Source: Thermoplasmata archaeon | GTDB taxonomy: Archaea > Thermoplasmatota > Thermoplasmata > RBG-16-68-12 > JAJISG01 | Length of the DNA stretch: 39,764 nucleotides | Assembly (NCBI GenBank): GCA_046759865.1 | Contig: JBHIDB010000003.1 | Span: 1 to 39,764, forward strand | Direction: 5' to 3' | Shown: piece by piece, positions 6,957 to 35,998 of the stretch | How positions within the stretch are numbered: position 1 is the first letter of the stretch | Layout: the number at the start of each line of letters is the position of its first letter | Position numbers and translations under genes: made by a program | The notes under the pieces: model-generated | The model's database searches: none | What the model saw: the letters and a program-made list of their open reading frames with translations, nothing else | What the model was told of the DNA's origin: nothing

Positions 6957-7426
6957 AGGCCCCTCCTCTTCAGATATCGAAGGTCTTCCTCGTCGATCCG
7001 GCTGAGGATTCCGTCCGCGAGGGAATCCCTCTTCGAAGGCGAGACTCCAGAGAGGACGAGACGGCCCTCGGTTTCGATTCGCGTCCCGCCCGCGGCCTCG
7101 TGGTAGGCGTTCTCCCAGTACGTGCCCGACCCGAGGAGACCACTGCTTTCCTGAATTTCGATGCGAAGCCGTTCGGGGGGCACCCGATCGTACCTCCAGA
7201 TTGCCTGCCACTCCCCCCGCTTCGAGGTGGCCGTCCGTTCATGGAGGGAGTAGGAGGCGAAGGCCAGGCCGCGGTAACGGACGTCGGGACCCGCCTCCGC
7301 GACTCTGTCCGTCAGGATGGCGGGATGGATTTCCCGGAGTCGAGCTTCCTCCTGATGCCAGGCTAGGAGCTGCCAGAGTCGGTCCCGAGACGTGGGAAAG
7401 ATGGCCTCCGTCTGAATGTCGACCGT
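6953..7426 (-). CDS. SRPBCC/START-like hypothetical protein (ACG start at 7426 proposed; in-frame ATG at 7462)
   Basis: Pattern VDIQTEAIFPTSRDRLW...GGTRIETEG...DEED resembles a helix-grip fold. GGAGG lies 6 nt before the ACG. Confidence 0.6.
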   Translation of the reverse strand, partial: TVDIQTEAIFPTSRDRLWQLLAWHQEEARLREIHPAILTDRVAEAGPDVRYRGLAFASYSLHERTATSKRGEWQAIWRYDRVPPERLRIEIQESSGLLGSGTYWENAYHEAAGGTRIETEGRLVLSGVSPSKRDSLADGILSRIDEEDLRYLKRRGL

Positions 7427-7570
7427 GTTCTGCCTCCCTCCCTGGATGGATGTGGTCCCCATTCAATCCTTTTTCGGTTTCAGCGTCGCTCAGGAAACCG
7501 CCCCGCTTTCCCCGCTTCGACCCCGAGACCAACTTTAATAGCCCGGCCTAGGATAGGCCCGAGGTACGCC

Positions 7571-8164
7571 ATGAAGAGCATCGATGCCCTGGTCCGCAAG
7601 GCCATGGAGTTCAAGGAGAAGGGCCTCAGCGAGAAGGAGATCGGTGACGAGCTGCACCTCTCCCCCGAGACGGTCACGTGGCTGCTCACCCGCGGGGTTC
7701 GCGGCGAGGCCCCGCCCCAAGACATCAAGATTGGTTGGCGCTCCGTGGGCGTGTTCGGCACCCGCGTGGGGTTCGTCGCGGCAGCGATGACGGACGTCAT
7801 CCTCGAGGAGCTCGAGAAGCGGGACATGGAGGCCGATGCCATCCTGGGGATCGCCATCAACGGGATCCCTTACGCCACCCTGGTCTCGGAGGATATGGGC
7901 AAGGAACTCGTGGTCTTTCGACCAAGCGGGGCGCGTCCCGAAGGCGGGGCCTTCAGCTCGAATTACGCGGGGGTGGATGGCAAGAGCGTGGTCATCGTGG
8001 ACGACGTCCTCAGCACAGGCGGGACCATCCGGGGAGCCATCCGGGAAACCCAGGAGGCGGGCGGCCAGGTGGTCCTCACCATGGTATTGGTCAACAAGAC
8101 GGACCAAGACGACGTGGACGGCGTCCCCCTGCGGGCCCTCATCCGGGCCCGGGGCATCGCGTGA
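7571..8164 (+). CDS. gfcR: PyrE-like HTH-PRTase transcriptional regulator (GfcR family)
   Basis: N-terminal HTH (KGLSEKEIGDELHLSPETVTWLL) plus PRPP-binding VIVDDVLSTGGT. Confidence 0.85.
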   Translation: MKSIDALVRKAMEFKEKGLSEKEIGDELHLSPETVTWLLTRGVRGEAPPQDIKIGWRSVGVFGTRVGFVAAAMTDVILEELEKRDMEADAILGIAINGIPYATLVSEDMGKELVVFRPSGARPEGGAFSSNYAGVDGKSVVIVDDVLSTGGTIRGAIRETQEAGGQVVLTMVLVNKTDQDDVDGVPLRALIRARGIA

Positions 8165-8170
8165 TGAGGG

Positions 8171-9757
8171 ATGCACTGGTTCGATGAGCTCTATCCCTCT
8201 ATCGAGGCGTTTCTAGCGGGGAAGGATCGGGTCCTCTGCAACGCCGGCCTCTCCGTCTCAGGCCTCCAGCACGTCGGCCGGCTCCGGGGCGAGATCGTTC
8301 TCAACCACTTCATCGCCACGCGACTCCGCTCCGCCGGGGGGACCGTCACCCAGCATCTGGTCCTATACACGCAGGACCGGTGGAAGGGGAGTCCGGCGCA
8401 GGTGGCCCAATTTTCGGGAGATGAGGGGACGGCGTACGTGGGCTATCGCATGATCGAGGTCCCCGACCCCAAGGGTTGCCACGAGAACTGGGTCGAGCAT
8501 TACTGGGAGGGGTTTGTGGGTCCCATGGAGGCGTTCGCCCCCGGCGTCGAGGCGTCTCAGACCACGGACTTGTACCGTACGGACGCGATGCAGGCCTTGG
8601 TCCGCGAGCTGGCCAACAAGGCGGAGGCACTGCGGGAGATCGTGAACCGCTACCGGCCCCGCAACCCCCACCCCTCCGGATGGATTCCCTTCGAGCCCCT
8701 CTGCTTGACCTGCCGCAAGATTGGAGATTCGCGCGCGTTGGGATTCACCGACGGAGAAGTCGAGTACGAGTGCGAGTGCGGCGGGAGCGGTTCCTCCCCG
8801 CTTGAATTGGGCAAGCTGAACTGGCGCGTTGAGTGGCCGGCCCTATGGTCCCTCCTGGAGGTCTCCGTGGAGCCCTTCGGCAAAGACCACGCGAGCCCCG
8901 GTGGCTCGCGAGAGACCTCGCAGGTCATCGCCGAGACCATTCTGGGGATCGAGGCCCCTTTTGGGATTCCTTACGAGTGGGTCGGCTACGCGGTGGACGG
9001 GGAGGACCAGGGCGACATGGAGAGTTCCGGCTTCGTGGGGTTCGGCCCGACAACGTGGCTCGACCTCGCCGATCCCGAGGTATTGCGTTTCCTGTTCGCC
9101 GCGACGCCGATTCGGAGGAGGCTCGTCTTGGACCTGTCCCAGGTCGATGCCTACCATCAGCGGTACGATCAGGCGGAGTCTGCGCACTATGCGGGGTCGG
9201 AGGAAGCGGCAGGCCGCGCCTACCTCCTTGCGCAGTTGGAGAGCCTGCCTGAGGAGAGGCCGTTTCAACTCCCCTACCGCCACGCCTCGTTGCTCGCCCA
9301 AGTTGCCCCGAGGGATGACCGGTTGGGGTGGTCGTTGGAGCGACTCGAAGGGACCGGATTGCTTGAGAGAGAGCCGACCCGCTGGGAGCAGGACCGCATT
9401 GGAAGGCGTCTGGAGCAGGCCGGGAACTGGGCCCAAACCCTTGCACCGGCGCCCTTGCGCGTCGAGGTCCAACAAGAGCTCCCTAAGGAACAAGCAGCTG
9501 ACCTCTCGACGCCCGAGAAGGAAGCTCTGATGAGGCTTCATGACGCCCTGACTGACGTCCCCTGGCGGGAGGAGGGAATCAAGGAGGCCATGGTCCGCTT
9601 GACCAAGGATGACCTGCCCGTATCGACCCCCCGGTTCTTCGCGGCCCTCTACACCGTCCTCTTAGGGAAGCGCTCCGGACCCCGAGCCGCCCCCCTCTTG
9701 GCGGTGCTGGAACGCGATTTCGTCCTCCGTCGTCTGGAAGAGGCTGGTGGAGGGTAA
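8171..9757 (+). CDS. lysS: Class I lysyl-tRNA synthetase
   Basis: SGLQHVGR (HIGH), two Cys clusters, KLNWRVEW, EPFGKDH, DMESS (KMSKS-like) and GPRAAP. Confidence 0.95.
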   Translation: MHWFDELYPSIEAFLAGKDRVLCNAGLSVSGLQHVGRLRGEIVLNHFIATRLRSAGGTVTQHLVLYTQDRWKGSPAQVAQFSGDEGTAYVGYRMIEVPDPKGCHENWVEHYWEGFVGPMEAFAPGVEASQTTDLYRTDAMQALVRELANKAEALREIVNRYRPRNPHPSGWIPFEPLCLTCRKIGDSRALGFTDGEVEYECECGGSGSSPLELGKLNWRVEWPALWSLLEVSVEPFGKDHASPGGSRETSQVIAETILGIEAPFGIPYEWVGYAVDGEDQGDMESSGFVGFGPTTWLDLADPEVLRFLFAATPIRRRLVLDLSQVDAYHQRYDQAESAHYAGSEEAAGRAYLLAQLESLPEERPFQLPYRHASLLAQVAPRDDRLGWSLERLEGTGLLEREPTRWEQDRIGRRLEQAGNWAQTLAPAPLRVEVQQELPKEQAADLSTPEKEALMRLHDALTDVPWREEGIKEAMVRLTKDDLPVSTPRFFAALYTVLLGKRSGPRAAPLLAVLERDFVLRRLEEAGGG

Positions 9758-9758
9758 C

Positions 9759-10520
9759 GTGGATTTCTACGAGCGATCCGCCCGGTACTACGATCTGATC
9801 TACAGCTCGATTGTGGACTACGAGCGAGAAGGGACCCTGCTGGAGGAGGTCTTCCAGCGATACGCCGAGCGGCCGATACGACGAATCCTCGACCTGGGGA
9901 GTGGCACCGGAAACCACGCCCTCATCCTCGCGTCGCGGGGCTACGATGTGCTCGGAGTCGATCGGAGCGAGGCCTTCGTCGCCCTGGCGAAGGAGAAGGC
10001 CCGCGAGCCACCGGACGGGCCCCGATTCGTCGTTGGGGACATGCGGGAACTTGCGATGGAGGATCAATTTGACGCCCTGATCAGTATGTTCGGGGCGTTC
10101 GGCCACCTCCCTCGGGACGCGGCGGGCGATATCCTCGCTCGATTTCGAGATCGGCTCGAGCCCGGTGGGATTCTCGCCTTCGAGTGGTGGAACGAGCCAG
10201 GCGCGCGGGACGGCTACCTGGACTGGTTGGAACGAGAAGGGGAGGGGATTCACCTCATCCGCATGGGGAAGTCGAGGGTGGACCTGGAGGCCCACACCCT
10301 AGAGATTACGCTCAAGCACCTGATACTCCGCGGGGACCGGCTGGAGGATACCTTCACAGAACGGGCCGTCCTGGCCCTCTACGAGGTCGGGGTGATGGAG
10401 GGCTTCCTCTCACGAGCGGGCCTCACTCCGATCGCCATGCTGGACTGGACCCGCAAGGCCCTCGAGCCGCCTCGCTCTGACGACTTTCGCGTCCTCGCCG
10501 TCGCCCGGCGAGACCGCTGA
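9759..10520 (+). CDS. Class I SAM-dependent methyltransferase
   Basis: YYDLIY and ILDLGSGTG motif I. GTG at 9759 follows GGAGG; alternative GTG at 9747. Confidence 0.88.
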   Translation: MDFYERSARYYDLIYSSIVDYEREGTLLEEVFQRYAERPIRRILDLGSGTGNHALILASRGYDVLGVDRSEAFVALAKEKAREPPDGPRFVVGDMRELAMEDQFDALISMFGAFGHLPRDAAGDILARFRDRLEPGGILAFEWWNEPGARDGYLDWLEREGEGIHLIRMGKSRVDLEAHTLEITLKHLILRGDRLEDTFTERAVLALYEVGVMEGFLSRAGLTPIAMLDWTRKALEPPRSDDFRVLAVARRDR

Positions 10521-10521
10521 C

Positions 10522-10535
10522 GGAAGGCTTTTAGG
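10522..10535 (+). promoter_or_regulatory. BRE/TATA promoter of tRNA-Gln
   Basis: GGAAGG followed by TTTTAGG, about 26 nt upstream of the tRNA 5' end. Confidence 0.6.
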
Positions 10536-10560
10536 CCGAGGCCAAGCTCAGACTCCCCGC

Positions 10561-10653
10561 AGCCCCGTGGTGTAGCGGTCAATCATGCGAGGCTCTGGAT
10601 CGTCCTCGCCGAGGAGAGACCTCGTGACGGCAGTTCGAATCTGCCCGGGGCTA
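10561..10653 (+). tRNA. tRNA-Gln(CUG) with a 20-nt intron (10599-10618) at position 37/38
   Basis: Acceptor stem AGCCCCG/CGGGGCT; anticodon stem CGAGG/CCTCG; anticodon CTG at 10595-10597; GTTCGAAT T-loop; BHB motif (CTCT paired with GGAG, 3-nt bulges). CCA not encoded. Confidence 0.93.
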
Positions 10654-10661
10654 TCCTCCCC

Positions 10662-11234
10662 TCACGCGGCCAAGAACCGCCGTAGCTCGGGTTCCCCCTC
10701 GATGGGGCCACGGACGACCAGCAGATCCTCAGCAAGGAGCGGGGTGTTCTCGTCGGGTCCGTAGATCCAGGACCCCTCGCGACGGATGGCAAGGACCCAG
10801 GCTCCCGTCTCCGAGGCCACCTTCAACTCCCCGAGGGTGTGCCCTGCGGCCGGGGACCGATCGGGCACCGTGAGGGTCGAGATGCTGGTATCGGATTCCT
10901 TCAATGCCTCGGCCACGACCGGGTGGGGCTCGATGTCCCGGAGGACGACGTCGGCGATCTGGAGGGCCCCGTCCGCGATGTCCTCGATGGAGGAGGCCAT
11001 GCGGATGAAGACGAGGGCCTTGTCCACGTCCCCGTCCTCGGTGGCCCGCCGGATGGCCTCTTCCTGAATCTCTTGGTCCCACCCGTCGATTCTATCCTCC
11101 AACTCGACGACGTGCCGGGCAATCTCCACATTGTCGTAGAGGAGGGCGGAGTAGGCGAGGTCCACCATGAGTTCGGAGGTGTCCTTCATCTCCAGCAAGG
11201 TGTCTTCGATGGTCACGTTCTGGCCTCCGGCCAT
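10662..11234 (-). CDS. PhoU + TrkA-C (RCK_C) domain protein
   Basis: EMKDTSELMVDLAYSA PhoU-like helix; GAWVLAIRR...DLLVVRG RCK_C. Confidence 0.88.
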   Translation of the reverse strand: MAGGQNVTIEDTLLEMKDTSELMVDLAYSALLYDNVEIARHVVELEDRIDGWDQEIQEEAIRRATEDGDVDKALVFIRMASSIEDIADGALQIADVVLRDIEPHPVVAEALKESDTSISTLTVPDRSPAAGHTLGELKVASETGAWVLAIRREGSWIYGPDENTPLLAEDLLVVRGPIEGEPELRRFLAA

Positions 11235-11809
11235 GCTTCCTCGCCCCGAGCGTACCGGCTGAGGCGCTGAAAGCCGTCCTCCGTGCCGCGTAGAACGAGG
11301 AGGTCCCCCTCCCGCAAGACCGCCTCCCCTTCCGGGTCGTACGTCCACTTCCGGCCGCGCTGGAGGGCAATGATTCGCATCCCGGTCTCGGTCTCCACCC
11401 GCAGGTCCCCGATGGCCCGCCCAGCCAGGGTCGACCCCGCGAGGAGACGCGCCGCCCGGAGCTTCTCGTCGGCCTCTCCCAGGACAAACGGCAGGAAAGG
11501 GCGCGCCTCGATCCGTTGCTCGAGCAGGTCCACGATGTCGCCGGCCCCGTTGGAGATGGTCTCGGCGGCGGATGCCACCTGGAGGATCCCCGCAAGCTGT
11601 TCGGCGTCCTGCTTGGTCCGACTGGCCATCAGGGCGATCATCCGGATCTGGTACCGGAGGTAATCCATCCGTTCCTCCAGGGCCCGGACCTCCGTGCCGA
11701 GGTCGTCGCTGTCGAAGACGACGGCGGCGTAGGCGAGGTCGACGATGTGCTCGCTGATGTCCTTCATCTCCACGAGGAGGTCCTTGACGCTCATAGGGGT
11801 GTACTCCAC
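11213..11809 (-). CDS. PhoU + TrkA-C (RCK_C) domain protein (paralog)
   Basis: EMKDISEHIVDLAYAA; TGMRIIALQRG...GDLLVLRG. GTG start following an SD-like GGGAG. Confidence 0.88.
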   Translation of the reverse strand: MEYTPMSVKDLLVEMKDISEHIVDLAYAAVVFDSDDLGTEVRALEERMDYLRYQIRMIALMASRTKQDAEQLAGILQVASAAETISNGAGDIVDLLEQRIEARPFLPFVLGEADEKLRAARLLAGSTLAGRAIGDLRVETETGMRIIALQRGRKWTYDPEGEAVLREGDLLVLRGTEDGFQRLSRYARGEEAWPEART

Positions 11810-11829
11810 CTCCCGATACGCGTCCGACG

Positions 11830-12387
11830 TCAGAGGATCGCCCCCAGCACGAGGACGAGTAAGGCGATCCCCAGCAGGTCCCCCATGGTGGTGACGATGG
11901 GAGTGATGAAGTTGTCCGGGTCCAGGCCCCGGGAGAAGGAGAGGAGGGCCACGGCCACGGTGACCAGGATCAGGACCCCCGCGAGCATGAGGCCAGTGGT
12001 CAGCATGAGGAAGAGGAGCACCTCCACTCCGAAGGGCGGCGTTACCCCCAGGCCTACCGCAGCCCCGTATATGAAAATTGCCAGGAGGGTGAAGGTCAAC
12101 AGGTAAAGGGCCAGCGCATCGCGGATCTGAGTCTGCAGGCCGCGGTCGGTGAGGCGGACGGAAAGGCTCCCTGTGTAGAGTCCGGAGGTGAGGCGGGCTC
12201 CCAAGACGGTCCCGACGTTCCCACCGACGCCGTTGATGACAGGCACCAGGATGAGGAGGAAGGGGAAGGCGAGAAAGATCGGTTCGTTGAGGTTCAGGAT
12301 CTGGCCCGCCACGAGGTTGAACACCACGAGGAAAACGAGGGCCGGCACACTCTGTTGGACGATGCCGGTCCAGCGGTAGAAGGTCAC
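11830..12387 (-). CDS. MgtE/SLC41 membrane-domain divalent cation transporter subunit
   Basis: GTG at 12387 overlaps the upstream TGA. Motifs PVINGVGGN and DPDNFITPIVTTMGD. Confidence 0.88.
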   Translation of the reverse strand: MTFYRWTGIVQQSVPALVFLVVFNLVAGQILNLNEPIFLAFPFLLILVPVINGVGGNVGTVLGARLTSGLYTGSLSVRLTDRGLQTQIRDALALYLLTFTLLAIFIYGAAVGLGVTPPFGVEVLLFLMLTTGLMLAGVLILVTVAVALLSFSRGLDPDNFITPIVTTMGDLLGIALLVLVLGAIL

Positions 12388-12941
12388 GGAATTCCCCCGA
12401 CGAGGAGAGCGACGAGGAAGAGGAGGAGCACGGTGAGGATGTCCCCCACCGTGGCCAGGGTGGGGGTGGTGACGTTGTCGGGGTCCAACCCCCGCCGAAA
12501 GGCCAGAATCAGGACAGCGAAGGTGACCCCCACCTGCAGCAGCCCCGCCACAGTCCCCGCCACGGTAGCGATCAGGACGAGCTTCCCCAGCCCGGCCGAG
12601 GGAAGGCCCAGAAGGACGGTCGTGAAGTGTCCCAGGACCCCCGTGAGGGCGGACAGGGTCAGGCTCAGGAAGACCGCCGCCAGGACCCCCTGGTGCGCCT
12701 CCTCGTTCCACAGGTTCCTACGTTCGATGAGGCCCATGTGGATGGCGGATCCCATGCGGGCACCCATGGCCCCGCTGACCCCCCCGCGGAGGGCGATGAG
12801 AACCGGGACCATCACAATGAGACCAGGAGTCCGCCGAAGGATGCCCTCCATCTCCTGGAAGAGGAGGCCCGCCAGCACCAACCCGAGCCCCGAGAGGAGG
12901 AGAACGGGAAGCGCCTCCCGGTACACGGAGGGGAGGGGCAT
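12384..12941 (-). CDS. MgtE/SLC41 membrane-domain subunit (paralog)
   Basis: Five hydrophobic segments and DPDNVTTPTLATVGD. TTTTTAG TATA-like box about 20 nt upstream. Confidence 0.88.
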   Translation of the reverse strand: MPLPSVYREALPVLLLSGLGLVLAGLLFQEMEGILRRTPGLIVMVPVLIALRGGVSGAMGARMGSAIHMGLIERRNLWNEEAHQGVLAAVFLSLTLSALTGVLGHFTTVLLGLPSAGLGKLVLIATVAGTVAGLLQVGVTFAVLILAFRRGLDPDNVTTPTLATVGDILTVLLLFLVALLVGGIP

Positions 12942-13121
12942 CGCATGGGGAAGGCCGGACCCTAAAAAGCGTTATGTTGAGAGTACCCGGAGTAATTTCC
13001 CTTTCCCTGAGTCAATGGTAGGCTATATCCGTGTCTGGCTCGACGGTTCGACGTCTTGGAATCGGGTGTTGTTTCGCGTCTTCTCTGACCGGTGATAAAC
13101 GGATCACCAACGACTCAACGA

Positions 13122-13337
13122 TTACTCGCCAAATCTGTCCCTGCGCTGTCGGACTAACGCCATGAGAGCCCCGATGGCGAACGCAAGTCCTGCGCCGATA
13201 ACAAGCCAAAGCCCCGGGTTAATTGCGGCTGCGAGCCGTCCTGCGACCACTACGATTATGACGATGAGAACCACTCCAACCCCGACGTAGCTGGCTAGTC
13301 GTAGCGCTACGCCTCTCTGTTCAGGTTCCGCCGCCGT
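13122..13337 (-). CDS. Small two-TM membrane protein, 71 aa, putative ACG start
   Basis: (M)AAEPEQRGVALRLASYVGVGVVLIVIIVVVAG...LWLVIGAGLAFAIGALMALVRQRRDRFGE*. GGGGAG 6 nt before ACG; TTATCT TATA-like box at 13381-13386. Confidence 0.55.
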   Translation of the reverse strand, partial: TAAEPEQRGVALRLASYVGVGVVLIVIIVVVAGRLAAAINPGLWLVIGAGLAFAIGALMALVRQRRDRFGE

Positions 13338-13406
13338 ATGACTCTCCCCGTTGTCGAGGGCACAGGAAAGATACCCTGCGAGATAAGACCTCCCGCCTTT
13401 CCCCGT

Positions 13407-14327
13407 TCAGTCGGCCAGCACGCGGACCGGGAGGAAGCCTGGGAGAAGGCTCGCCTTCATGGGGAGGGTCCCGACAAGCTCGCCATCCATCTCCGCCAGA
13501 ACGGTATCGTCGGAGCTCGCGCGCACGGACTTTCCTCGGGTGAAGGAGACCTTGGGATGAGAGAGGTGCTCCCCTCGGCGAAGCTTGCCCAGGCTCCCCA
13601 CCGCCTCCCCGACGCTGACGTCGCCAAAGATCACCACGTCCAGCAGACCGTCGTCGAGGCGAGCTCCCGGGGCGGGCCGCAGGCCGCTCCCGAAGTATTG
13701 TCCGTTGGCTACGATGACCCCATTCATGGAGCCCTCGGCAAACGTCGTGCCGTCCACGTCCACACGAATGGGCTTGTTGCGGTAGGAGAGGAGGGTGATG
13801 AGGGTGGCCATCAGGAAGGCCATCCGCCCGCCGAGGGGCTTCGCGCTCCGATTCACGCGTTCGACGACTTCGCCGCCCGAGCCGGCCTCGAGGATGTTCG
13901 CGAAGTACCTCGTCTGGGAGATGCCCTGGAAGTCGACGCACTCGCAGCGGCCCACGTCCACCGGCAGGTAGGTCGAGGAAGCGAGGATGTCCGCGGCGTG
14001 CTCCAGCCCCCGCGGGAGGCCCAGGGTCTTCGCATAGTCGGTCCCACTTCCGACGGGAATAATCGTGAGGCGCGCCCGCGGGTCCGCAAGGGCGTCGTCC
14101 CGGACAAGGCCATTTAGGGCCTCGTTCACGGACCCGTCTCCTCCCACGACTCCCACCTCGGTCTCCCCGCCCCGTACGGCGTCGCCCACCAGGGTTGTCG
14201 CAGATCCAGGCCCCGTAGTCAGGGCCGCCTCGAGGCCGGGTACCAGGTCTCTCAGCACGTCTTCGAGGGCGGACCATTCGCGCCCTACGCGGCCGCCCGC
14301 GGCGTGGGGGTTGACGACCAGAAGCAT
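13407..14327 (-). CDS. Diacylglycerol/lipid kinase, YegS/Rv2252/BmrU family
   Basis: NPHAAG, GGDGSVNE, GSGTDY, NGQYFGSG and DGE motifs. TGATG overlap with the upstream gene. Confidence 0.92.
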   Translation of the reverse strand: MLLVVNPHAAGGRVGREWSALEDVLRDLVPGLEAALTTGPGSATTLVGDAVRGGETEVGVVGGDGSVNEALNGLVRDDALADPRARLTIIPVGSGTDYAKTLGLPRGLEHAADILASSTYLPVDVGRCECVDFQGISQTRYFANILEAGSGGEVVERVNRSAKPLGGRMAFLMATLITLLSYRNKPIRVDVDGTTFAEGSMNGVIVANGQYFGSGLRPAPGARLDDGLLDVVIFGDVSVGEAVGSLGKLRRGEHLSHPKVSFTRGKSVRASSDDTVLAEMDGELVGTLPMKASLLPGFLPVRVLAD

Positions 14328-17520: not shown

Positions 17521-17607
17521 CCCTCCGCGTCCATCGCATGGCGGTAGAATAGGTTTCTGCAGCCGGGGAGGTTTATGTAGCGGCCAGAGGATGCGTAGGC
17601 AAGGGAG

Positions 17608-21499: not shown

Positions 21500-21517
21500 G
21501 GGGAGGGGGGTCCGCCA

Positions 21518-21658
21518 ACGGCGTACACGTGCCCGGAGTGTGGCGAGGAGGCCATGGAGAGGAAGGAGGAGAAGCCGGGCTGGTACACCCTCGAGTGCGC
21601 AAAGTGCGGGGCCGAGCGGGGCCCCTTCCGAGACGCCCGAGACATGTCCGTGGCCTAG
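21518..21658 (+). CDS. CPxCG zinc-ribbon microprotein, 46 aa, putative ACG start
   Basis: (M)AYTCPECGEEAMERKEEKPGWYTLECAKCGAERGPFRDARDMSVA*. GGAGG upstream; no ATG/GTG/TTG before the first Cys. Confidence 0.7.
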   Translation, partial: TAYTCPECGEEAMERKEEKPGWYTLECAKCGAERGPFRDARDMSVA

Positions 21659-24350: not shown

Positions 24351-24351
24351 A

Positions 24352-27474: not shown

Positions 27475-27701
27475 CGCACGATTCAAGGTTCAGAGCTCTC
27501 TAATAGCTTACCTACCAAGCATCCCCGGGCTCGTCGGTATGGTTTGGCACCAATTGGGGCCAAACGGACAGGATCTTAAGCTCTCCAGAGGGGGTCGCGA
27601 AAGTACCCTCAGGGATCGTCGCTCCTCCCTGTTCTCGGGCGAGATAATAGAGCGCAAAACTATAGGAAAAGAGGTAGCCATTCACGCCGCGAGCTGACTC
27701 G

Positions 27702-29282
27702 ATGGACGCTCGAGGGATACCAGAGGACTTGCTTGCCTTCTTCCGGGGGACGGGAGGCCACTCCCTTATCGTCAAGGGCTCGGCGGGGACAGGCAAGACG
27801 ACCCTTGCCCTCCAACTCATCGAGGAGCTCAACGACATCCCCGGGTCCTACTATCTCAGCCTTCGGGTCTCCGACACCTCCCTCTACCGGCAGTTCCCGT
27901 GGCTCCAAGCGAAAGTGCGAGAATCCGAATTGATGAAAATCGGGCAGCGCTTCCTGCGAAGCTTCGACGAGTTGAGCGACGAGGAACAGGAGCGGATCCG
28001 CCAGGCACGGAGTCTCCTCCGGGAAGTCTCCGAGGACGAGGTCCGCGTGAGCCGCGTCGACCGAACGGAGCTGAACAAGCTCGAAGGGCGCGTCGAGATG
28101 GGGCAGGAGGGCGGTGACATCTACGAAGGGGTGGAAGGGGGGGAGGTGACGGACGAGGGAGTTATCTTCGACCTCCACTCCGACCTGCCGGAGATGGACA
28201 TCGCGTACGAGGCGGTGGATAAGAATCTCCCCCAGAAGAGCCTCCTGGTCATCGACAGCATCGACGCGCTCAGCGAGCGGTATGGCATCCACCCCGCGAA
28301 GCTCATCAACACGATTCAGAAGGACTTGGTGGAGAACAGCAACACCAACGTGGTGTACATCCTAGAGCAGGGCGGCATTACGAAGCTGGACTACCTCGGC
28401 GACGGGGTGGTGGACATGCGTGACGTGGAGGTCAGGAGCCGACGGCTCCGTCTCATCGCCGTGGAGAAGCTGCGGGGCCGGGAGATTGCGCAGCACAAGC
28501 ACGTAATCACTCTGAAGGACGGACGGATCACGGCCTTCCCTCAGCGTCCCCCCGCAGGCCCCGGCAGGCGTCGCCGCTGGAAGGCTCGGAGCGACCTCGG
28601 GAAGCGTCTTTCCACCGGACACGAGGACCTCGATGCCCTCATCGGCGGGTTGGAGCGGGGCGGCGTTCTTGCCCTCCAGACGGACGCGCGGGTCCCGGAC
28701 GCCTTCGTGGACCCGCTCCTCATCGGCTTCGTCTCGAACTTCATGAGGAAACGACGGGGGGTGGCGTACGTCCCTCCCCGCAAGGTGGCGGCCGACGACG
28801 TTCGGGAGGCCCTCAAGCCCTACGTGGGAGCCCCTGCCCTCGACCGCTACCTCAAGGTTTTCGAGGCAGCCCCCCTGGGGACCCTCGAAAGCAGCACCGC
28901 TGCCCTCCAGATGGAGGGAGCCGACGTGGAAACGGATCTGCGGTGGAGCACGATTCAGTACCATCTCGCGGAGGCACGCCCGCCCCTCCTCTCCCTCCTG
29001 GCGTTCGACACCTTGGAGGCCGTCTACGGGCCGGATGTAGCCTCTCGGCTGACAGGACACCTCGCCGCGATTCGCAAGTCCAAGGACGTGTTCGTTGGCC
29101 TCACCGCTGCCGACTCCCCCTCCGCCGAGGCCTTGGCGAACCTCGCCTCCGTCCACATCCGCATCGAGAGTGTAGAGGGCGCCATCCTGCTCTACGGGGA
29201 GAAGCCCTACACCCCCTTTCACAGCCTGTCCTACGACCTGGAAGAGGGCTTCCCCCGGGCGCGTCTCCTCCCCGTCGTCTGA
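27702..29282 (+). CDS. GvpD/RAD55-like duplicated RecA-fold ATPase
   Basis: KGSAGTGKT Walker A, VIDSID, DGVV and EKLRG; degenerate second domain (STG..DLD). Possible in-frame ACG start at 27684. Confidence 0.82.
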   Translation: MDARGIPEDLLAFFRGTGGHSLIVKGSAGTGKTTLALQLIEELNDIPGSYYLSLRVSDTSLYRQFPWLQAKVRESELMKIGQRFLRSFDELSDEEQERIRQARSLLREVSEDEVRVSRVDRTELNKLEGRVEMGQEGGDIYEGVEGGEVTDEGVIFDLHSDLPEMDIAYEAVDKNLPQKSLLVIDSIDALSERYGIHPAKLINTIQKDLVENSNTNVVYILEQGGITKLDYLGDGVVDMRDVEVRSRRLRLIAVEKLRGREIAQHKHVITLKDGRITAFPQRPPAGPGRRRRWKARSDLGKRLSTGHEDLDALIGGLERGGVLALQTDARVPDAFVDPLLIGFVSNFMRKRRGVAYVPPRKVAADDVREALKPYVGAPALDRYLKVFEAAPLGTLESSTAALQMEGADVETDLRWSTIQYHLAEARPPLLSLLAFDTLEAVYGPDVASRLTGHLAAIRKSKDVFVGLTAADSPSAEALANLASVHIRIESVEGAILLYGEKPYTPFHSLSYDLEEGFPRARLLPVV

Positions 29283-29323
29283 CCTTTTCCGGGTCAGAGA
29301 GTCTCAGGCCTGATAACTGAATA

Positions 29324-29338
29324 GAAATAGGTTTAAAT
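29324..29338 (+). promoter_or_regulatory. BRE/TATA promoter (likely leaderless transcript)
   Basis: GAAATAGG-TTTAAAT ending 21 nt before ATG 29360. Confidence 0.6.
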
Positions 29339-29359
29339 TGACCTTCGCAACCAACCCCG

Positions 29360-29701
29360 ATGCGGGAGAAGGATATTTCGCGTCTCCTAACGGATGATTA
29401 TGCGGAACGGATTCTCGTCGCAACCCATCAACGCGCAAAATCCGTCCAGGAGATCAGCGATCGGTACGACATCCCTATCGCGGCCTGCTATCGCAAGGTC
29501 CACGAGCTCGAGGATGCCGGCTTTCTCCGTTGCTCCCGTATCGTCACCACCCCCAAGGGCAAGGCCATGAAGCTCTACCAGGCCACCCTGAAGAAGGCCC
29601 AACTGCGGTTCGAGTCAGGCTCCTTCCAGGTCCGCTTCGAGTTCGACCACGAATCCCAGATGAACGGGAGGTGGATCGAGCTCAACTCCGCGTTGAACTG
29701 A
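29360..29701 (+). CDS. Winged-HTH (ArsR-like) transcription regulator
   Basis: LLTDDYAERIL...SVQEIS...IPIAACYRKVHELE. Confidence 0.85.
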   Translation: MREKDISRLLTDDYAERILVATHQRAKSVQEISDRYDIPIAACYRKVHELEDAGFLRCSRIVTTPKGKAMKLYQATLKKAQLRFESGSFQVRFEFDHESQMNGRWIELNSALN

Positions 29702-29820
29702 CCGACCCCCACTTTTCATTGCCCTCCCTCCGCCTCAAGCCGACCGCTCGACTGGGCGGGAAGGGTTAATTAGGCGCCGCCTGCCTATTCTTCCCTGAGA
29801 CCTTTCCGAGGTACCTTCCC

Positions 29821-30738
29821 GTGCTTTACGACGTCATCATCCTAGGATCCGGCCCCGCCGGACTCACGAGCGCCGTCTATGCCACCCGCGGAAATCTCAA
29901 AACCCTGGTGGTGGCGGGATTCGAATACGGCGGGCAGCTCATGCTCACCACGGACGTGGAGAACTACCCGGGCTTCCCGGACGGCGTCCAAGGCCCCGAC
30001 CTCATGGACCTCATGATCAAGCAGGCCGAGCGGTTCGGAGGGGAGTTTGTCTACGAGAACGCCACGGAGGTTGACTTTGGCGGGAACCCGTTCAAGGTCC
30101 ATGTGGGGGACAAGGTCTACGAGGGCCGGAGCATTATCATCGCCACCGGCGCCTCGGCGAAATGGCTCGGCCTGGAATCGGAGAAGCGCCTCATCGGATA
30201 CGGCGTCTCCAGCTGTGCCACCTGCGACGGCCACTTCTTCCGAGACATGGACCTCGTCGTCGTGGGAGGGGGGGATACGGCCATGGAGGAGGCCCTCTTC
30301 CTGTCCAAGCTGGCGAAGCACGTGACGGTCATCCATCGCCGAGACGAGCTCAAGGCGAGCAAGATAATGGCGGAGCGGGCATTCAAGAACCCGAAGATTG
30401 ACTTCGTCTGGGACACCGTTGTCGTCGAGGTGCTCGGCGAGGAAAAGGTCGCAGGGGTTCGCGTCCAGAACGTGAAGACGAAGGAGACGCGGGACATCCC
30501 CGTACAAGGAGTCTTCATCGCCATCGGCCACGTCCCCAACACGAAGATCTTCGAGGGTCAGATTGATATGGAAAAGGGCTACATCACCGTATACGATTCC
30601 ACCAAGTCCAACGTCGAAGGCGTCTTCGTCGCGGGGGACGTCCATGACTACCGCTACCGCCAGGCGGTCACCGCGGCGGGTTTCGGTTCCATGGCGGCCA
30701 TGGACGCGGAGAAGTGGCTAGAGGCCCAGGACGCGTGA
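29821..30738 (+). CDS. trxB: Thioredoxin-disulfide reductase
   Basis: GSGPAG, CATCDG, GGGDTA, HRR, AGD and RQAVTAAG motifs. Confidence 0.95.
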   Translation: MLYDVIILGSGPAGLTSAVYATRGNLKTLVVAGFEYGGQLMLTTDVENYPGFPDGVQGPDLMDLMIKQAERFGGEFVYENATEVDFGGNPFKVHVGDKVYEGRSIIIATGASAKWLGLESEKRLIGYGVSSCATCDGHFFRDMDLVVVGGGDTAMEEALFLSKLAKHVTVIHRRDELKASKIMAERAFKNPKIDFVWDTVVVEVLGEEKVAGVRVQNVKTKETRDIPVQGVFIAIGHVPNTKIFEGQIDMEKGYITVYDSTKSNVEGVFVAGDVHDYRYRQAVTAAGFGSMAAMDAEKWLEAQDA

Positions 30739-30802
30739 GGCGAGTCGCCCCGGTAGGCCTTCATGGCGCCCCGGAAGAGGACCGGGCGGTGGGTTCAGAG
30801 GG

Positions 30803-31108
30803 ATGAAGCGCGAGGTCACGCTAGCGCGAACCGACGAGCTGCGGCCGGGCGAGGCACGGGTCGTGGAACGGGAGGGCCTCTTCCTTGCTCTCTACAACGT
30901 CGACGGGACCTTCTACGTCACGGACAACACGTGCTTGCATCGTGGTGGGCCTCTGGGTGACGGGTTCCTGGAGAGGACGGTCATCACATGCCCTTGGCAT
31001 GGGTGGCAGTACGACGTGCGAACGGGGGAAAATCTCGGGAGCCAGAAGCTCCGGGTGAACACCTACCCGGTCGTTGTGGAGAACGGAGAAGTCAAGATCC
31101 AACTCTGA
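30803..31108 (+). CDS. Rieske [2Fe-2S] ferredoxin
   Basis: CLH...CPWH ligand pattern. Confidence 0.92.
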   Translation: MKREVTLARTDELRPGEARVVEREGLFLALYNVDGTFYVTDNTCLHRGGPLGDGFLERTVITCPWHGWQYDVRTGENLGSQKLRVNTYPVVVENGEVKIQL

Positions 31109-31158
31109 CGGCGCGGGATGTCTGGACGAGGATCAGGATTCCGTTGCGACTGCCTCAA

Positions 31159-31420
31159 TCACCGGACATCGTAGGTGATCTTCACGCGTGCCTCGTGGAG
31201 CATGACGCGAATGGAGCAGTACTTCTCGGCCAAGGCGACCTCCCGCTAAGCCGCGCCTCATTCAGGCCCTCACCGGCGATCTCGTAGGCAAGGGGAATGT
31301 CGGAGTACACCTTCGGCTCCACCTCCGTCTCCTCCGCGACCAGCTCGAGTTGAATCTCCTCCCACTCGATTTTCATCAGACGGATGTCGTGTTTGAGAGT
31401 CGCGACGACCAACCGGCCAT
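31159..31420 (-). pseudogene. OsmC/YhfA-family remnant, frameshifted and N-terminally truncated
   Basis: EPKVYSDIPLAYEIAGEGLNEARL, frame change near 31245, then VALAEKYCSIRVML...KITYDVR*. Confidence 0.7.
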
Positions 31421-31459
31421 CCGACCAACCGGAGCTACCGGCCCTGACTTTCACGGCTC

Positions 31460-31545
31460 CTAGGCCTCTTCGCCGTGTACCTCGGCCCGATGCTTTTTGA
31501 ACTCTTCCTAGGACCCGAAGCCCATCCCATAGAACTCGGACCCGC
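31460..31545 (-). pseudogene. Degenerate C2H2 zinc-finger microprotein copy
   Basis: FYGMGFGS*EEFKKHRAEVHGEEA* mirrors CCGVEYRTTRDYRLHKSEVHGE of the neighbouring gene; in-frame TAG at 31508-31510. Confidence 0.5.
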
Positions 31546-31637
31546 CCACGGGGTAACACTTCGGGACCTCCTAGTCAAGTCCCCGGTTGGAGGGTTCAAA
31601 GCGGGGGGTGGGCCAAGGGGCACCCGAAAGCAGCGTT

Positions 31638-31814
31638 CTAGGCCTTTGTGGAGTGGACTTCGATCCGATGCTCGTCGAGCTCCTCGGCCGTTTCATACAG
31701 AATATTGCAATCCCCGCAATCGTAGATGTGCTCGCCGTGCACCTCGGACTTGTGCAACCTGTAGTCCCGGGTCGTCCTGTACTCCACCCCGCAGCATGAG
31801 AGGTACTCGCGCAT
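31638..31814 (-). CDS. Tandem C2H2 zinc-finger microprotein, 58 aa
   Basis: MREYLSCCGVEYRTTRDYRLHKSEVHGEHIYDCGDCNILYETAEELDEHRIEVHSTKA*. TTTATG TATA-like box about 25 nt upstream. Confidence 0.75.
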   Translation of the reverse strand: MREYLSCCGVEYRTTRDYRLHKSEVHGEHIYDCGDCNILYETAEELDEHRIEVHSTKA

Positions 31815-31995
31815 GTGACGTGAAGTATCCCGCCCCCCATAAACTCCCTCCGTGCCCCGCCGACTTGACGGACTCCGCCTCGTGCAGATGTGGGGCCCTT
31901 CGTTCCCATCGCGTGATAATTAGACCGGAACGCTTAAATATCGAATACCAGCATCCGCCGTTTCCCTCATGGATGGGATGGTGGAGAGAGGGCCG

Positions 31996-32343
31996 ATGAA
32001 TCCTCTGCAAGCCTCACAGCTTCTCACAGACGAATACAGCGCGAAGATCCTTCTAGCCACCTACAAGCGAAAGATCAGCGCCCAGGAGATCAGCGCCCGG
32101 TATGGCATCCCCATCGCAGCCTGCTACCGGAAGATTCGAGTCCTCGAGGAGGCTGGGCTCATTGAGTGTGTCGATCGGGTCCTCACGCAGAAGGGGAAGC
32201 GCAAGAACCTCTACACCTCGAAGCTGCGGAACGCCTACATCTTCTTCGAGAGCGGACGACTACGGGCCCGCTTCCAACTCATCACCGGGGTCGTCAGGGA
32301 CTTTGGCGGCGACTGGACCGGCGTGGACGTACTCGAAGAGTAG
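31996..32343 (+). CDS. Winged-HTH regulator, paralog of 29360-29701
   Basis: LLTDEYSAKIL...IPIAACYRKIRVLE. ATG 31996 after an SD; CTTAAATA at 31933-31940. Confidence 0.85.
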   Translation: MNPLQASQLLTDEYSAKILLATYKRKISAQEISARYGIPIAACYRKIRVLEEAGLIECVDRVLTQKGKRKNLYTSKLRNAYIFFESGRLRARFQLITGVVRDFGGDWTGVDVLEE

Positions 32344-32444
32344 GCCCCGTGGGTTCGACCCACCCCCCACTTCACGCGCGTGATTCTCTGTCTTGATAAC
32401 AGGGTCTGACCCTTTAAGTACGCTCAAGACCAGACGATTTCCTC

Positions 32445-32567
32445 ATGAGGATACGCTTCCGGAAGATCCTCCCAGACGGTCGGAGCGTCCGGTTCGAGAA
32501 GGAGAAGGACACCCTGACTCTGAACATCATCGTCTGGAAGGACCGAGTCCGAAGCGGCGCGAGCTGA
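32445..32567 (+). CDS. Basic microprotein, 40 aa
   Basis: MRIRFRKILPDGRSVRFEKEKDTLTLNIIVWKDRVRSGAS*. TTTAAGTA box 24 nt upstream. Confidence 0.5.
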   Translation: MRIRFRKILPDGRSVRFEKEKDTLTLNIIVWKDRVRSGAS

Positions 32568-32769
32568 ACTCCGGCGGACGTTCGCCCGCCTGCCCGGCTA
32601 AGGGTCGAAATCCTGACCGGGTTCGTCCCGCCTCTCCTTCCTCGCCGATGGCGTTTTCACCGACACAACTCCCTTCTTGGTACCGTCCCGTGCGGTCTCC
32701 TCCGACGGGGGCCGCGAGCCAAAGAGTGAACCGTCGATGCTCGCGGAATACCGGGGGGAACCTTTGGTC

Positions 32770-33453
32770 CTATGGCCCTGAACCCCCCTCGGTGCCCGGG
32801 GCGAGGAGATACCCGTCGCCCTTCCTGCCCGCCGTGCCGGCTTGTGCGAGCTCCTTGAGAGTGTCCTCGATGAGATCGGGTGCGAGATCGAGTTGGAAGC
32901 CAGATTGGAGAGCATCCTTGATCTCCGCAACGGGCCGTGCGGTTCCGTCAAGGGCCTTTGGGACGATGGTGCGCAGGTCTTCGTGCAGATTCCAGGGGAA
33001 GATGAACCAAGCCCACTCCTCCTTCGGAACCTCGACCTCGTAGAAATCGGGGGTGAACTTCGAGTGGGTGATGTGCAGCACGGTGGCGCTGCGGAGCTGA
33101 GAAGGGCTGGCTTCGGCCACGTGCTGCATGGCGAGGGCGAGGCTTTCCCCGGTGTCCGTGATGTCGTCCACAAGGAGGACCCTGTTCTCGGAGATGTCGA
33201 CAGTGAGTCCCTGGACGAGACGCGCCTTGCCGTCCGGCTGCGCCGTGACGCCCCAGTGTTCGACCTTGACGGCGTAGAGCCGTTTGATCGCGAGTAGGTC
33301 GCATAGGAGTCGCGCAGGGAGCCACCCGCCCCGGGTCAGCCCAACGATCACATCGGGGTCGAAGTCACTCTCCCTGATCTTCGCCCCCAGACCGAAGGCC
33401 CAGGTCGCGATCTCGTCCCAGGTTACGATCCGGCATCGAAAGGTGTCGTCCAT
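32770..33453 (-). CDS. Type I purine phosphoribosyltransferase (xanthine/guanine/hypoxanthine-like)
   Basis: TRGG, LLVDDITDTGES and WFIFPW motifs. Confidence 0.9.
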   Translation of the reverse strand: MDDTFRCRIVTWDEIATWAFGLGAKIRESDFDPDVIVGLTRGGWLPARLLCDLLAIKRLYAVKVEHWGVTAQPDGKARLVQGLTVDISENRVLLVDDITDTGESLALAMQHVAEASPSQLRSATVLHITHSKFTPDFYEVEVPKEEWAWFIFPWNLHEDLRTIVPKALDGTARPVAEIKDALQSGFQLDLAPDLIEDTLKELAQAGTAGRKGDGYLLAPGTEGGSGP

Positions 33454-33490
33454 GGTGTCGTCCTCGGGCCTGAGAGTTCTGCCGCGCGCC

Positions 33491-34300
33491 TCAGACCTCC
33501 GCGCCCTCGAGCGCCCTCGCGCAGACGCATCCGCGCTCTTCGGGGATGGTGGGCACCGCCTTCGCAAGCAACGCCTGCGACTTGCTCTGGTTCTCGGCGA
33601 GGGTCTTCATGATCCCCGGGACCTCCACCGGTTTCTCCGCCCAGACGTCGTAGTCCGTGACCATGGCGATGCCGAGGTAGCAGACCTCCATCTCCCGCGC
33701 GAGCTGTGCCTCCGGGCAAGCCGTCATCCCGATGATCTCCGCGAATTGGCGAAACATCCGGCTCTCCGCTCGGGTAGAGAAACGCGGGCCCTCGATGCAC
33801 GCGTAAGTGCCTTTGTCGTGAACGGGAAGGTTTAGCTTCCGTGCGTGGGCCGCAAAGTGAGTGCGCAGGGTCGGGCAGAACGGGTCGGCGAGGGAGACGT
33901 GGACGGTCTTCCCCTCGTCGTAGAACGTGTAGGTTCGGGTCTTCGTGTAGTCGATGAATTGGTCTGGGAAGACGAAATCGCCCGGCCTGTACTCCTCCCT
34001 TAGCGAGCCCACCGCGGACGGGGAGACGATTCGGCGGACGCCCAGGTGGTGCAGGGCCCACACGTTCGCGCGATAGTTGATAGAGTGCGGCGGGATGGTG
34101 TGCCCCTTCCCATGCCGGGGGAGGAAGGCGATGGGCGTCCCGTGGAAGTCCCCCAGCTCGATGGGTGCGGAGGGTGGGCCGTATGGCGTGGACACCTCCA
34201 TCGAGCGGACTTCGCTCACCTGTGACGTGTCGTAGACTCCAGTCCCGCCAATGATCCCGATGGGCGCAGAGCCGTCGGCCGTTGGAGCAGCGTGCGGCAT
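33491..34300 (-). CDS. mtnP: S-methyl-5'-thioadenosine phosphorylase
   Basis: IIGGTG, TPYG, PRHG, EGPRFSTRAES, GMT and VTDYD (6-aminopurine-type). Confidence 0.92.
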   Translation of the reverse strand: MPHAAPTADGSAPIGIIGGTGVYDTSQVSEVRSMEVSTPYGPPSAPIELGDFHGTPIAFLPRHGKGHTIPPHSINYRANVWALHHLGVRRIVSPSAVGSLREEYRPGDFVFPDQFIDYTKTRTYTFYDEGKTVHVSLADPFCPTLRTHFAAHARKLNLPVHDKGTYACIEGPRFSTRAESRMFRQFAEIIGMTACPEAQLAREMEVCYLGIAMVTDYDVWAEKPVEVPGIMKTLAENQSKSQALLAKAVPTIPEERGCVCARALEGAEV

Positions 34301-34374
34301 CGGATCCCGGTGGCAAGAAGGGGGCACTTCCTCAAATAGACGGGGGGACCGTGAAGGCAGCGGGTTCGATTGAA

Positions 34375-35439
34375 ATGAAGATAGACAAGAACCTTCTGCT
34401 TGAGCACTTAAGGTCCCTGTACGGCAAGGAGGTGCGCATAGGCGGCCTTTCAGAGATGGGAACCGGCACCCACGGGACCGCCCATCGTGTGGATGCACAT
34501 GTCAAGGGCAGAAAAACCAGCATGGTGCTCAAGAGGCTTCACGGAAACGGGCTTGGTCACGACTATCCGGCGGACAGGGCCCAGGTATTCATGCTCTCCA
34601 TGGACACGTTCAACCGCTTCCCAAGGCACGTCAAGGCCATAGACGTCATCGGCATCGAGGAGGACGGTAGCTGGGTTTCACTTGGGAGAACGCGGGATTT
34701 CCTGTTCCTCATGGAGGCAGCCACTGGGACGCCGTATTTTGACGACCTCGAGCAGATGAGGGGGGGCGAGGGGCTGTCTGGGAAGGACGAATGGAAGGTA
34801 GAGCGCCTTGCCTCCTTTCTTGCAACCATCCACTCCAAACAGCCGAGTTTCTCATCACAAAAGGCCACCCAGATTTACCGCAGGAAAGTACGTGACACCA
34901 TCGGTCACGGGGAGTGCCTGATGGGGGTGATGGATACCTATGTGGATCCCACTTTCATCACCAGAAGGCAGATGTCAGATGTCGCGAAGCGTTGCATCGA
35001 CCACTGGATTCGGATAAGGGACATGGACAGGCTGTGTAGGATACACGGCGATTTTCACCCCGGTAACATCTTCTTTGAGAATAGGAAGCTCACGCTTCTT
35101 GACAGAAGCCGCGGCGAGTTTGGGGAGGCGGCGGACGACATAACCGCGCTTGCCATAAACTACGTCTGGTACTCGCTGATGCACAACGGAAGATTCTCCG
35201 GCCCTTACAGGGAAGCCCTTGATCGGTTCCTTGAAGTATACCTCGAAAAGACAGGCGATGAAGACCTGCTCTCGGTGGTTCAGCCCTTCTTTGCCTTCCG
35301 GGGCGTCGTAGTAGCAAATCCGGCCTTCTATCCGGACGTGCCTGACAACGTGAGACGCAAGCTGATAAGATTTGTGTTGGGAGTGCTCAAGACCTCAAGG
35401 TTCCGGACGACGAGGATCAACGAATACACGAGGGGATAG
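34375..35439 (+). CDS. Aminoglycoside phosphotransferase/choline kinase-fold kinase
   Basis: Gly-rich GTGTHG, VLK, HGDFHPGNI and LDRS motifs. Alternative GTG at 34351. Confidence 0.85.
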   Translation: MKIDKNLLLEHLRSLYGKEVRIGGLSEMGTGTHGTAHRVDAHVKGRKTSMVLKRLHGNGLGHDYPADRAQVFMLSMDTFNRFPRHVKAIDVIGIEEDGSWVSLGRTRDFLFLMEAATGTPYFDDLEQMRGGEGLSGKDEWKVERLASFLATIHSKQPSFSSQKATQIYRRKVRDTIGHGECLMGVMDTYVDPTFITRRQMSDVAKRCIDHWIRIRDMDRLCRIHGDFHPGNIFFENRKLTLLDRSRGEFGEAADDITALAINYVWYSLMHNGRFSGPYREALDRFLEVYLEKTGDEDLLSVVQPFFAFRGVVVANPAFYPDVPDNVRRKLIRFVLGVLKTSRFRTTRINEYTRG

Positions 35440-35440
35440 C

Positions 35441-35998
35441 ACGTTCGCCGTATGGATCACGGGTCTCCCAGGAAGCGGCAAGTCAACCATCGCAAGGCAT
35501 CTTTCCTCAGGGCTCAAGAAGCGCGGCATAGGGTTCCAACTCCTCGAGATGGACCGCATCAGGCCGATGCTGACCCCGGAGAAGAGATACACAGAGCAGG
35601 AGCGTGATTTCGCCTACAGGGCGTTGGCAGTCATGGGGGCGCTCCTCGTCGAAAGCGGCACAAATGTCATCATAGACGCAACGGCCCACAGGAAGCGGTG
35701 GAGGGATTTTGCAAGAGAACACATCAGAGATTTCAAAGAGGTATATGTGAGATGTCCGGTTGAGGTCTGCATCGAAAGGGAGGCCAAGAGGAAGTCCACC
35801 GTTGTCCGGCAAGACATCTACAAGGACGCTCTCAAAGACCTCAAAAGGGAAGAGAGGCCAGAGGGGCTCGGCCAGGTCATAGGAGTGGATGTGCCCTACG
35901 AGGAGGGGGAGCCGGACCTTACGGTGGATTCCGACAAGACCGATCCCAAAGAGGCTGCAAGCGCGATAATGGAGATGATTCTGTGGATTACAAGGTAA
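35441..35998 (+). CDS. Adenylyl-sulfate kinase-like P-loop kinase (ACG start proposed; alternative TTG at 35372)
   Basis: FAVWITGLPGSGKST, EVYVRCP.EVC..RE and GVDVPYE motifs. Confidence 0.82.
   Translation, partial: TFAVWITGLPGSGKSTIARHLSSGLKKRGIGFQLLEMDRIRPMLTPEKRYTEQERDFAYRALAVMGALLVESGTNVIIDATAHRKRWRDFAREHIRDFKEVYVRCPVEVCIEREAKRKSTVVRQDIYKDALKDLKREERPEGLGQVIGVDVPYEEGEPDLTVDSDKTDPKEAASAIMEMILWITR

Follow-up and report, generated by a model that had tools for sequence, protein, structure and literature searches.

Conserved ACG codons as probable start codons for a handful of genes in a Thermoplasmata genus

Can ACG, a codon that differs from AUG at position 2 only, open a gene in an archaeon? 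The question is raised by a 39,764-nt stretch of DNA from a Thermoplasmata archaeon (contig JBHIDB010000003.1 of assembly GCA_046759865.1; "the window" is this whole stretch). There, an original prediction made from the sequence alone had picked out five open reading frames (ORFs) with an in-frame ACG shortly after a Shine-Dalgarno (SD)-like motif, and had proposed relaxed start selection with ACG initiation or, more speculatively, C-to-U editing. All five codons are in frame where they were placed, behind G-rich SD-like motifs. Here we compare these sites, and several outside the window, with related genomes, and conclude that the genus, and more widely its order, probably uses ACG as a start, weak but functional, in a small number of genes—we put the probability of this at roughly two in three. 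Two kinds of comparative evidence carry the conclusion: orthologs or paralogs have ATG, GTG or TTG at the codon where ACG stands, with no canonical start usable in frame, and the sequence encoded right behind the ACG is conserved at the protein level. The ACG starts look real but few; they appear to concern a handful of genes, and initiation as a whole is not recoded.

The window is contig C3 of a metagenome-assembled genome (G000) of 1.32 Mb in 158 contigs, with 64% G+C, from an 83%-complete bin; its source DNA is present in hydrothermal-vent metagenome runs. G000 has the archaeal features of PAC2 proteasome-chaperone paralogs, aIF1, and an initiator tRNA with A1:U72 and three G:C anticodon-stem pairs. 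The comparison set comprised seven congeneric species (G001-G007, 74-93% nucleotide identity to G000) together with 33 more genomes from the same order; from G000, 218 kb (parts of contigs C1-C8) was projected by blastn onto five to seven congeners, and the start-column scans made beyond the window include some wrong-frame ORFs. An SD-like motif before an ACG proves nothing alone in a G-rich genome, and comparison with relatives was therefore used as the test. SD-like motifs stand before ACG in G000 no more often than expected by chance: a duplex of -7 kcal/mol or better precedes 38 of the 233 ACGs in pre-start zones (16%), against 29% for first ATGs and 19% for internal codons taken at random. 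The pattern that had drawn attention to the window is thus, as a signal, at chance level. Conservation of the ACG in sister genomes, which the original prediction had proposed as a check, was found at four of the five sites; ACG initiation is retained for these (21518, 13337, 7426 and 35441) and for three genes elsewhere in the genome, and is given up for the fifth (27684), as is any genome-wide enrichment. The features discussed are collected in Table 1.

Table 1. Candidate ACG starts and related features; plain coordinates refer to the window, those with a contig prefix to other contigs of G000 (C3 is the window contig).
Feature	Position	Strand	Start codon or motif, and context
Zinc-ribbon gene, 46 amino acids, CxxC-x21-CxxC	21518..21658	+	probable start ACG 21518-21520; stop TAG 21656-21658
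SD-like motif GGGGAGGGGGG	21500..21510	+	7 nt upstream of ACG 21518; non-coding spacer behind PAC2 (stop TAA 21497-21499)
APS-kinase-like P-loop kinase gene, 185 amino acids	35441..35998	+	candidate start ACG 35441-35443, 1 nt after TAG 35437-35439 of the APH-like gene
SD-like motif GAGGGGAT	35430-35437	+	3 nt before ACG 35441
SRPBCC-like gene (weak match), 157 amino acids	6953..7426	-	probable start ACG 7426-7424; SD-like GGGAGGGAGG at 7442-7433, 6 nt before ACG
Two-helix membrane ORF, 71 amino acids	13122..13337	-	candidate start ACG 13337-13335; SD-like GGGGAG at 13349-13344, 6 nt before ACG
Chance ACG in leader of GvpD/KaiC-like ATPase gene	27684..27686	+	not a start; gene start is ATG 27702
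PNP/MTA-phosphorylase-like gene, start column	34298..34300 (C3:34300)	-	ATG in G000, G003, G005, G007; ATT in G002; ATC in G004
AcnX gene	C21:10244	-	ACG in 7/8 genus genomes, behind GGAGGGGG + 7 nt
EamA transporter gene	C1:46600		ACG in G000, ATG in 7/7 relatives; GGAGG 7 nt upstream
Deoxyhypusine synthase gene	C8:11605		ACG in G000, ATG in 6/6 congeners; NCBIfam profile aligned from residue 6

The comparative data fit ACG initiation strongly at the zinc-ribbon gene, whose product has weak matches to Pfam zinc-ribbon profiles and which lies downstream of a PAC2 gene in all 14 genomes of the genus and family. At its start column seven of the eight species of the genus (G000-G006) have ACG and the eighth, G007, has ATG; in the sister genus an ATG stands nearby, in five genomes three codons upstream of this column and in one genome a single codon downstream. 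The conserved core is preceded by no canonical start, as the original prediction had said: there is none back to the stop seven codons upstream, and the next ATG lies 12 codons downstream, past the first CxxC. Over the 12 codons after the ACG, which include that CxxC (GCG TAC ACG/GTG TGC CCG GAG TGY...), the genus varies almost only synonymously. The PAC2 stop is in frame with the ribbon in G000 and G006 and out of frame in G001, G002, G003, G004 and G005, and a polymorphic 1-nt deletion at 21505, in the G-run between the two genes, occurs in two of the four vent metagenome runs (partly in run X3, wholly in X4). Taken together, the changing frame and the indel argue that the spacer is not translated and that the ribbon is a separate cistron. 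An assembly error at ACG 21518 is excluded, since independent genomes share the codon; in the DNA contigs of the four vent runs, three ACGs were covered and none differed, among the differences listed.

A clear case outside the window is the gene for AcnX. Residues 2-381 of its product align with positions 2-398 of the 400-position Pfam AcnX profile, which places the ACG at profile position 1 of the family. Across the order, the start column could be read in 30 genomes: 19 have a canonical codon (ATG 8, GTG 7, TTG 4), ten have ACG and one has GCG. The ten fall into three groups—six genomes of the genus, three of its sister genus, and G038 of another family. ACG in 10 of the 11 AcnX genomes without a canonical codon, and in separate groups, would be hard to get by chance; kinship reduces the ten to three or four events. 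In-frame stops lie one or two codons upstream of the ACG in G001, G004, G006, G038 and one copy in G002 (contig C259); in G038 the stop codon immediately precedes the ACG. The G002 bin, which has 7% contamination, carries two AcnX copies, on its contigs C3 and C259, one with an ATG start and one with ACG; it probably holds two strains or species.

Two further genes of G000 have an ACG where congeners have ATG, those for an EamA transporter and for deoxyhypusine synthase (Table 1). In the EamA gene the next canonical start is 17 codons downstream, inside the first helix of the domain. This gene and AcnX came out of a screen of G000 only, which asked for non-canonical codons that have an SD and coding potential and precede the first canonical start. 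Five ACG hits resulted, of which four were compared with relatives and these two confirmed, the remaining ACG hits including C78:1873 and C10:4104. For one ACG hit, in a MetE-like gene, the CTG one codon upstream is the better candidate for the start; in G005 this ACG is replaced by ACC. The deoxyhypusine synthase start was the one real start column, on inspection, among nine columns with mixed ACG in the column scan.

At the three other retained sites of the window, the comparative data fit ACG initiation moderately. In the APS-kinase-like gene, position 3 of the Pfam APS_kinase profile aligns one residue past ACG 35441. The sole upstream alternative is TTG 35372, 23 codons upstream and overlapping the upstream gene by 68 nt, just as had been predicted; the next ATG is 36 codons downstream, behind the P-loop. 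At the G003 locus (91% identical) the ACG is kept and TTG 35372 has become TCG, a change that is synonymous in the overlapping upstream gene. A more distant homolog, in G014 (39% identical), reads TAA-c-ATG where G000 reads TAG-c-ACG. The block that carries this gene together with those for the APH-like kinase and ahcY (34349-37297) is shared only with G003; in G002, G004, G005 and G007 its flanks are matched and the block itself is not.

The SRPBCC-like gene has a match to Pfam Polyketide_cyc2 that scores under the cut-off and begins two residues past ACG 7426. The gene was found in three genomes (G000, G002, G007), all with the ACG, and the SD is kept in G002 and G007. An in-frame ATG that the original prediction does not mention lies 12 codons upstream in G000 (ATG 7462); in G002 and G007 it is out of frame through a 1-nt indel in the 36-nt stretch, and this length difference argues that the stretch from 7462 to 7426 is not coding.

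The two-helix membrane ORF at 13337 has, as predicted, no canonical start before its hydrophobic core: none occurs back to the stop 24 codons upstream, and the next is a GTG 21 codons downstream, inside the core. The ACG is kept in G003, and two paralogs in G000 (contigs C144 and C94) have ATG at exactly the ACG codon, with the same ..TCAT spacer. The ORF sits on a stretch of about 410 bp (about 12992-13403) that occurs at this place only in G000 and G003 and is missing here in G002, G004, G005 and G007. Similar copies on contigs C144 and C94 of G000 (69-75% identity) each carry a small two-helix membrane ORF; the stretch is possibly a small gene cassette that is mobile or was duplicated.

The fifth site is rejected as a start. 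An SD-like AGAGGT stands 8 nt before ACG 27684, and ATG 27702, which the original prediction passed over, follows six codons downstream. In five relatives the ACG column reads CGG, CCG, ACG, ACG and CCG; the ATG is invariant in all six genomes, G000 included. For the other genes in the window, start columns are conserved as ATG, GTG or TTG, and ATG and GTG replace each other in them as is usual for prokaryotes. A helicase ORF at 788-4612 (minus strand; Pfam matches to DEAD, archaeal helicase domain 4 and HHH, with an intein matching Hint and LAGLIDADG) overlaps, in antisense, the start of a divergent DUF885 gene (3605-5881, plus strand) and misleads simple gene finding.

Several observations weigh against ACG initiation, most of them concerning numbers. 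The original prediction had tied its own fate to a genome-wide enrichment, and the SD-and-coding screen of G000 found no ACG-specific excess (5/233 against 0.95% overall), with CTG (9/177), CTC, GAG and GAC ranking as high as ACG or higher. Relatives show no ACG at 189 conserved canonical columns, some of which may be internal; at these G000 has ATG 106, GTG 58 and TTG 25 times, which bears out the prediction that GTG and TTG starts are frequent. Likewise, the 77 ATG start columns of a strictly defined set vary to GTG only (six times), and a relaxed scan for orphan starts, dominated by wrong-frame noise, returned ACG once among 24 codon types. Most cases were chosen by an SD criterion, in the original prediction or in the screen, which makes their association with SD motifs circular. 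Individual genes add their own doubts: AcnX in G001, G004 and G006 has a TTG two codons past the ACG that is a possible alternative start; the ATG-to-ACG changes seen only in G000 (EamA and deoxyhypusine synthase) could be recent start-codon losses or strain variants; and the 13337 ORF could be a decaying copy. In G005, finally, the AcnX start (locus L365) is GCG, with no canonical start nearby, and near-cognate pairing does not explain GCG—it may reflect editing, another start or a defect.

Several of these points serve the rival explanation that the ACGs are not starts at all: the genes would begin, truncated, at the next canonical codon or decay without a start, and the SD matches would be chance. 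This holds for 27684. SD-like motifs before 16-19% of arbitrary codons and the lack of genome-wide enrichment are as it would have them, and an ATG, GTG or TTG does lie 12-36 codons downstream in every case except 7426 (81 codons). The EamA and deoxyhypusine synthase changes also resemble fresh ATG-to-ACG mutations, and the 13337 ORF lies in a repeated insert. The conserved genes speak otherwise: family segments precede the next canonical codon in the ribbon (first CxxC), AcnX (positions 2-21), the kinase (P-loop) and EamA (first helix), and AcnX has ACG in 10 of 11 non-canonical genomes from three separate groups. A modest further point is that at the ribbon and AcnX columns ACG persists over six to seven diverged species with none of the synonymous ACC, ACA or ACT; for scale, among ordinary conserved threonine columns where G000 has ACG, 45 of 208 are ACG throughout all genomes. 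We hold it unlikely that the retained ACGs are not starts.

ACG is not the only one-mismatch codon found at start columns. An orphan scan, which searched mostly canonical columns for genomes whose own codon is non-canonical and which lack another start close by, gave CTG 7, ATC 4, ATT 1 and CCT 1; on inspection three were real start columns and the rest wrong-frame ORFs. One is C2:34939 (plus strand), with the conserved N-terminus VKLFLDTAHIPHIKE, which we take to be that of a transaldolase, although no profile scan was made: G000, G001 and G007 have GTG, and G002, G004 and G005 have CTG. Another is the PNP/MTA-phosphorylase-like gene, which in G002 (ATT) has no other canonical start from the upstream stop to six codons downstream; G004 (ATC) was not so listed. 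The third is a zinc-ribbon gene with TTG in five genomes and CTG in one. Separately, the MetE-like methionine synthase gene at C78:3743 (plus strand) has CTG in 4/4 genomes, behind GGAGGAGG. The CTGs at C2:34939 and C78:3743 are likely start codons, and one-mismatch starts (CTG, ATT/ATC, ACG) would seem to be tolerated in a few per cent of genes at most.

How might an ACG be read? That ribosomes start at these codons, that they insert methionine there, and how efficiently they do so is what we infer from the comparison of genomes. The most economical reading appears to be near-cognate pairing, in which the ordinary initiator tRNA (anticodon CAU) would pair with ACG with one middle-base mismatch, as with other near-cognates. 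An SD duplex 3-7 nt upstream could help to hold this pairing, and translational coupling is possible where the ACG closely follows an upstream stop; such a stop is near in three cases—1 nt away in the kinase gene, 18 nt in the ribbon, and inside the SD-to-start spacer in AcnX.

In G000 the initiator tRNA gene lies on contig C24 (minus strand, about 1990-2150) and has the anticodon CAT and A1:U72. It reads as a two-intron gene, with introns in the D-arm region and the T-loop, and ARAGORN wrongly calls it tRNA-SeC; the layout recurs in G009, a genome of the sister genus. The initiator anticodon arm (CAT) was found once in 7/8 genus genomes. A dedicated initiator with a CGU anticodon appears unlikely, as a search for a CGT arm gave only two matches among 41 genomes, both inside protein-coding sequence. 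Leaving aside a hit in L395, ARAGORN and Rfam found no tRNA in four small loci, which included a control with the intron-bearing initiator gene (L396); in the 83%-complete G000 bin ARAGORN did not find elongator tRNA-Met or tRNA-Thr(CGU), and it called many tRNA genes only with introns, several of these at non-canonical positions. Loss of aIF1 or of the t6A enzyme Sua5 is rejected as a cause, as they are present in 38/41 and 39/41 genomes.

The main rival account of the same codons is mRNA editing: C-to-U changes at specific sites would convert ACG to AUG and GCG to GUG ahead of translation, such that the genomic ACG would be only apparent. Plant organelles edit ACG to AUG at start codons and require PPR-DYW factors to do so. 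As there, the start of conserved genes here shows a genomic ACG in place of the relatives' ATG, the classical signature of start editing. The CTGs at start columns would likewise become UUG, and the AcnX start of G005 has GCG where seven genomes have GTG, again a C in place of T at codon position 2; no other observation fits editing better than near-cognate decoding. Against this, the ATT and ATC start columns (C3:34300, C5:1335 and C7:2744) cannot be converted to AUG, GUG or UUG by C-to-U changes and are left unexplained. The DYW deaminase domain (PF14432) that plant-organelle editing would lead one to expect was found in 0/5 genomes, a result without a positive control, as it was also found in 0/14 control genomes. 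We know of no mRNA C-to-U editing in archaea; if true, start-codon editing here would be the first. On balance we consider editing improbable as the source of the ACGs, and we give a slightly lower probability to a lineage in which start codons undergo C-to-U editing at their second base (ACG to AUG, GCG to GUG).

The weakest alternative, that the ORFs extend upstream proteins through stop readthrough (ribbon and 13337) or a +1 frameshift at TAG 35437 (kinase), can point in G000 to the single in-frame stops before the ribbon (TAA 21497) and the 13337 ORF (TGA 13407) and to the kinase's +1 frame and G-rich junction motif, but it is highly improbable given the ATGs that sister-genus ribbons, the 13337 paralogs and the G014 kinase homolog have of their own, and for the ribbon readthrough is rejected outright, the PAC2 frame not being kept across species (its stop is in another frame in G001-G005) and the spacer carrying the 1-nt indel polymorphism at 21505.

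Near-cognate initiation at ACG, to return to the reading we favor, has partial precedents. NCBI table 11 accepts the rare starts CTG, ATT, ATC and ATA, with the AUU of infC as an example. The genes described here resemble those cases in being SD-led with a single one-mismatch start, and in that CTG and ATT/ATC starts occur beside ACG in the lineage; they differ in that ACG, to our knowledge, is outside that set. ACG initiation itself is known from eukaryotes and viruses, for example for VP2 of adeno-associated virus and the C' protein of Sendai virus. The likeness would lie in the reading of the same codon by ordinary Met-tRNAi with one mismatch. Eukaryotic ACG starts are reached by scanning, whereas here the ACG would be placed by an SD duplex or by coupling to an upstream stop; and they yield alternative isoforms, whereas here the ACG would be the sole start of housekeeping genes. 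Efficiency is a further difference: in yeast CYC7 data quoted in a review, ACG works at about 0.5% of AUG (PMC4705826), which would be too low for a sole start.

The same review names only AUG, GUG and UUG as archaeal starts, and describes archaeal aIF1 and aIF2 as homologs of eIF1 and eIF2 (PMC4705826). Ribosome profiling of Haloferax volcanii placed about 30% of the harringtonine-identified putative alternative starts at near-cognate codons; these sites were set aside to limit false positives, and the main text does not name ACG (PMC7261190). The Haloferax sites hint that archaeal ribosomes initiate at near-cognate codons, but they are alternative sites and not conserved sole starts of annotated genes. 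Papers describing ACG starts in archaea or other prokaryotes were not found in the limited literature set searched.

For annotation, gene finders that work with table 11 would drop, truncate or over-extend genes that start with ACG; those affected here are a conserved zinc-ribbon protein, a kinase, AcnX and, in G000, deoxyhypusine synthase. If the reading proposed is true, archaeal initiation—with aIF1, aIF2 and Met-tRNAi, and an SD duplex—tolerates a mismatch at the middle position with useful efficiency. Sole ACG starts would bear on how the stringency of start-codon selection evolved between archaea and eukaryotes, and the genes described here provide concrete cases in which this can be tested.

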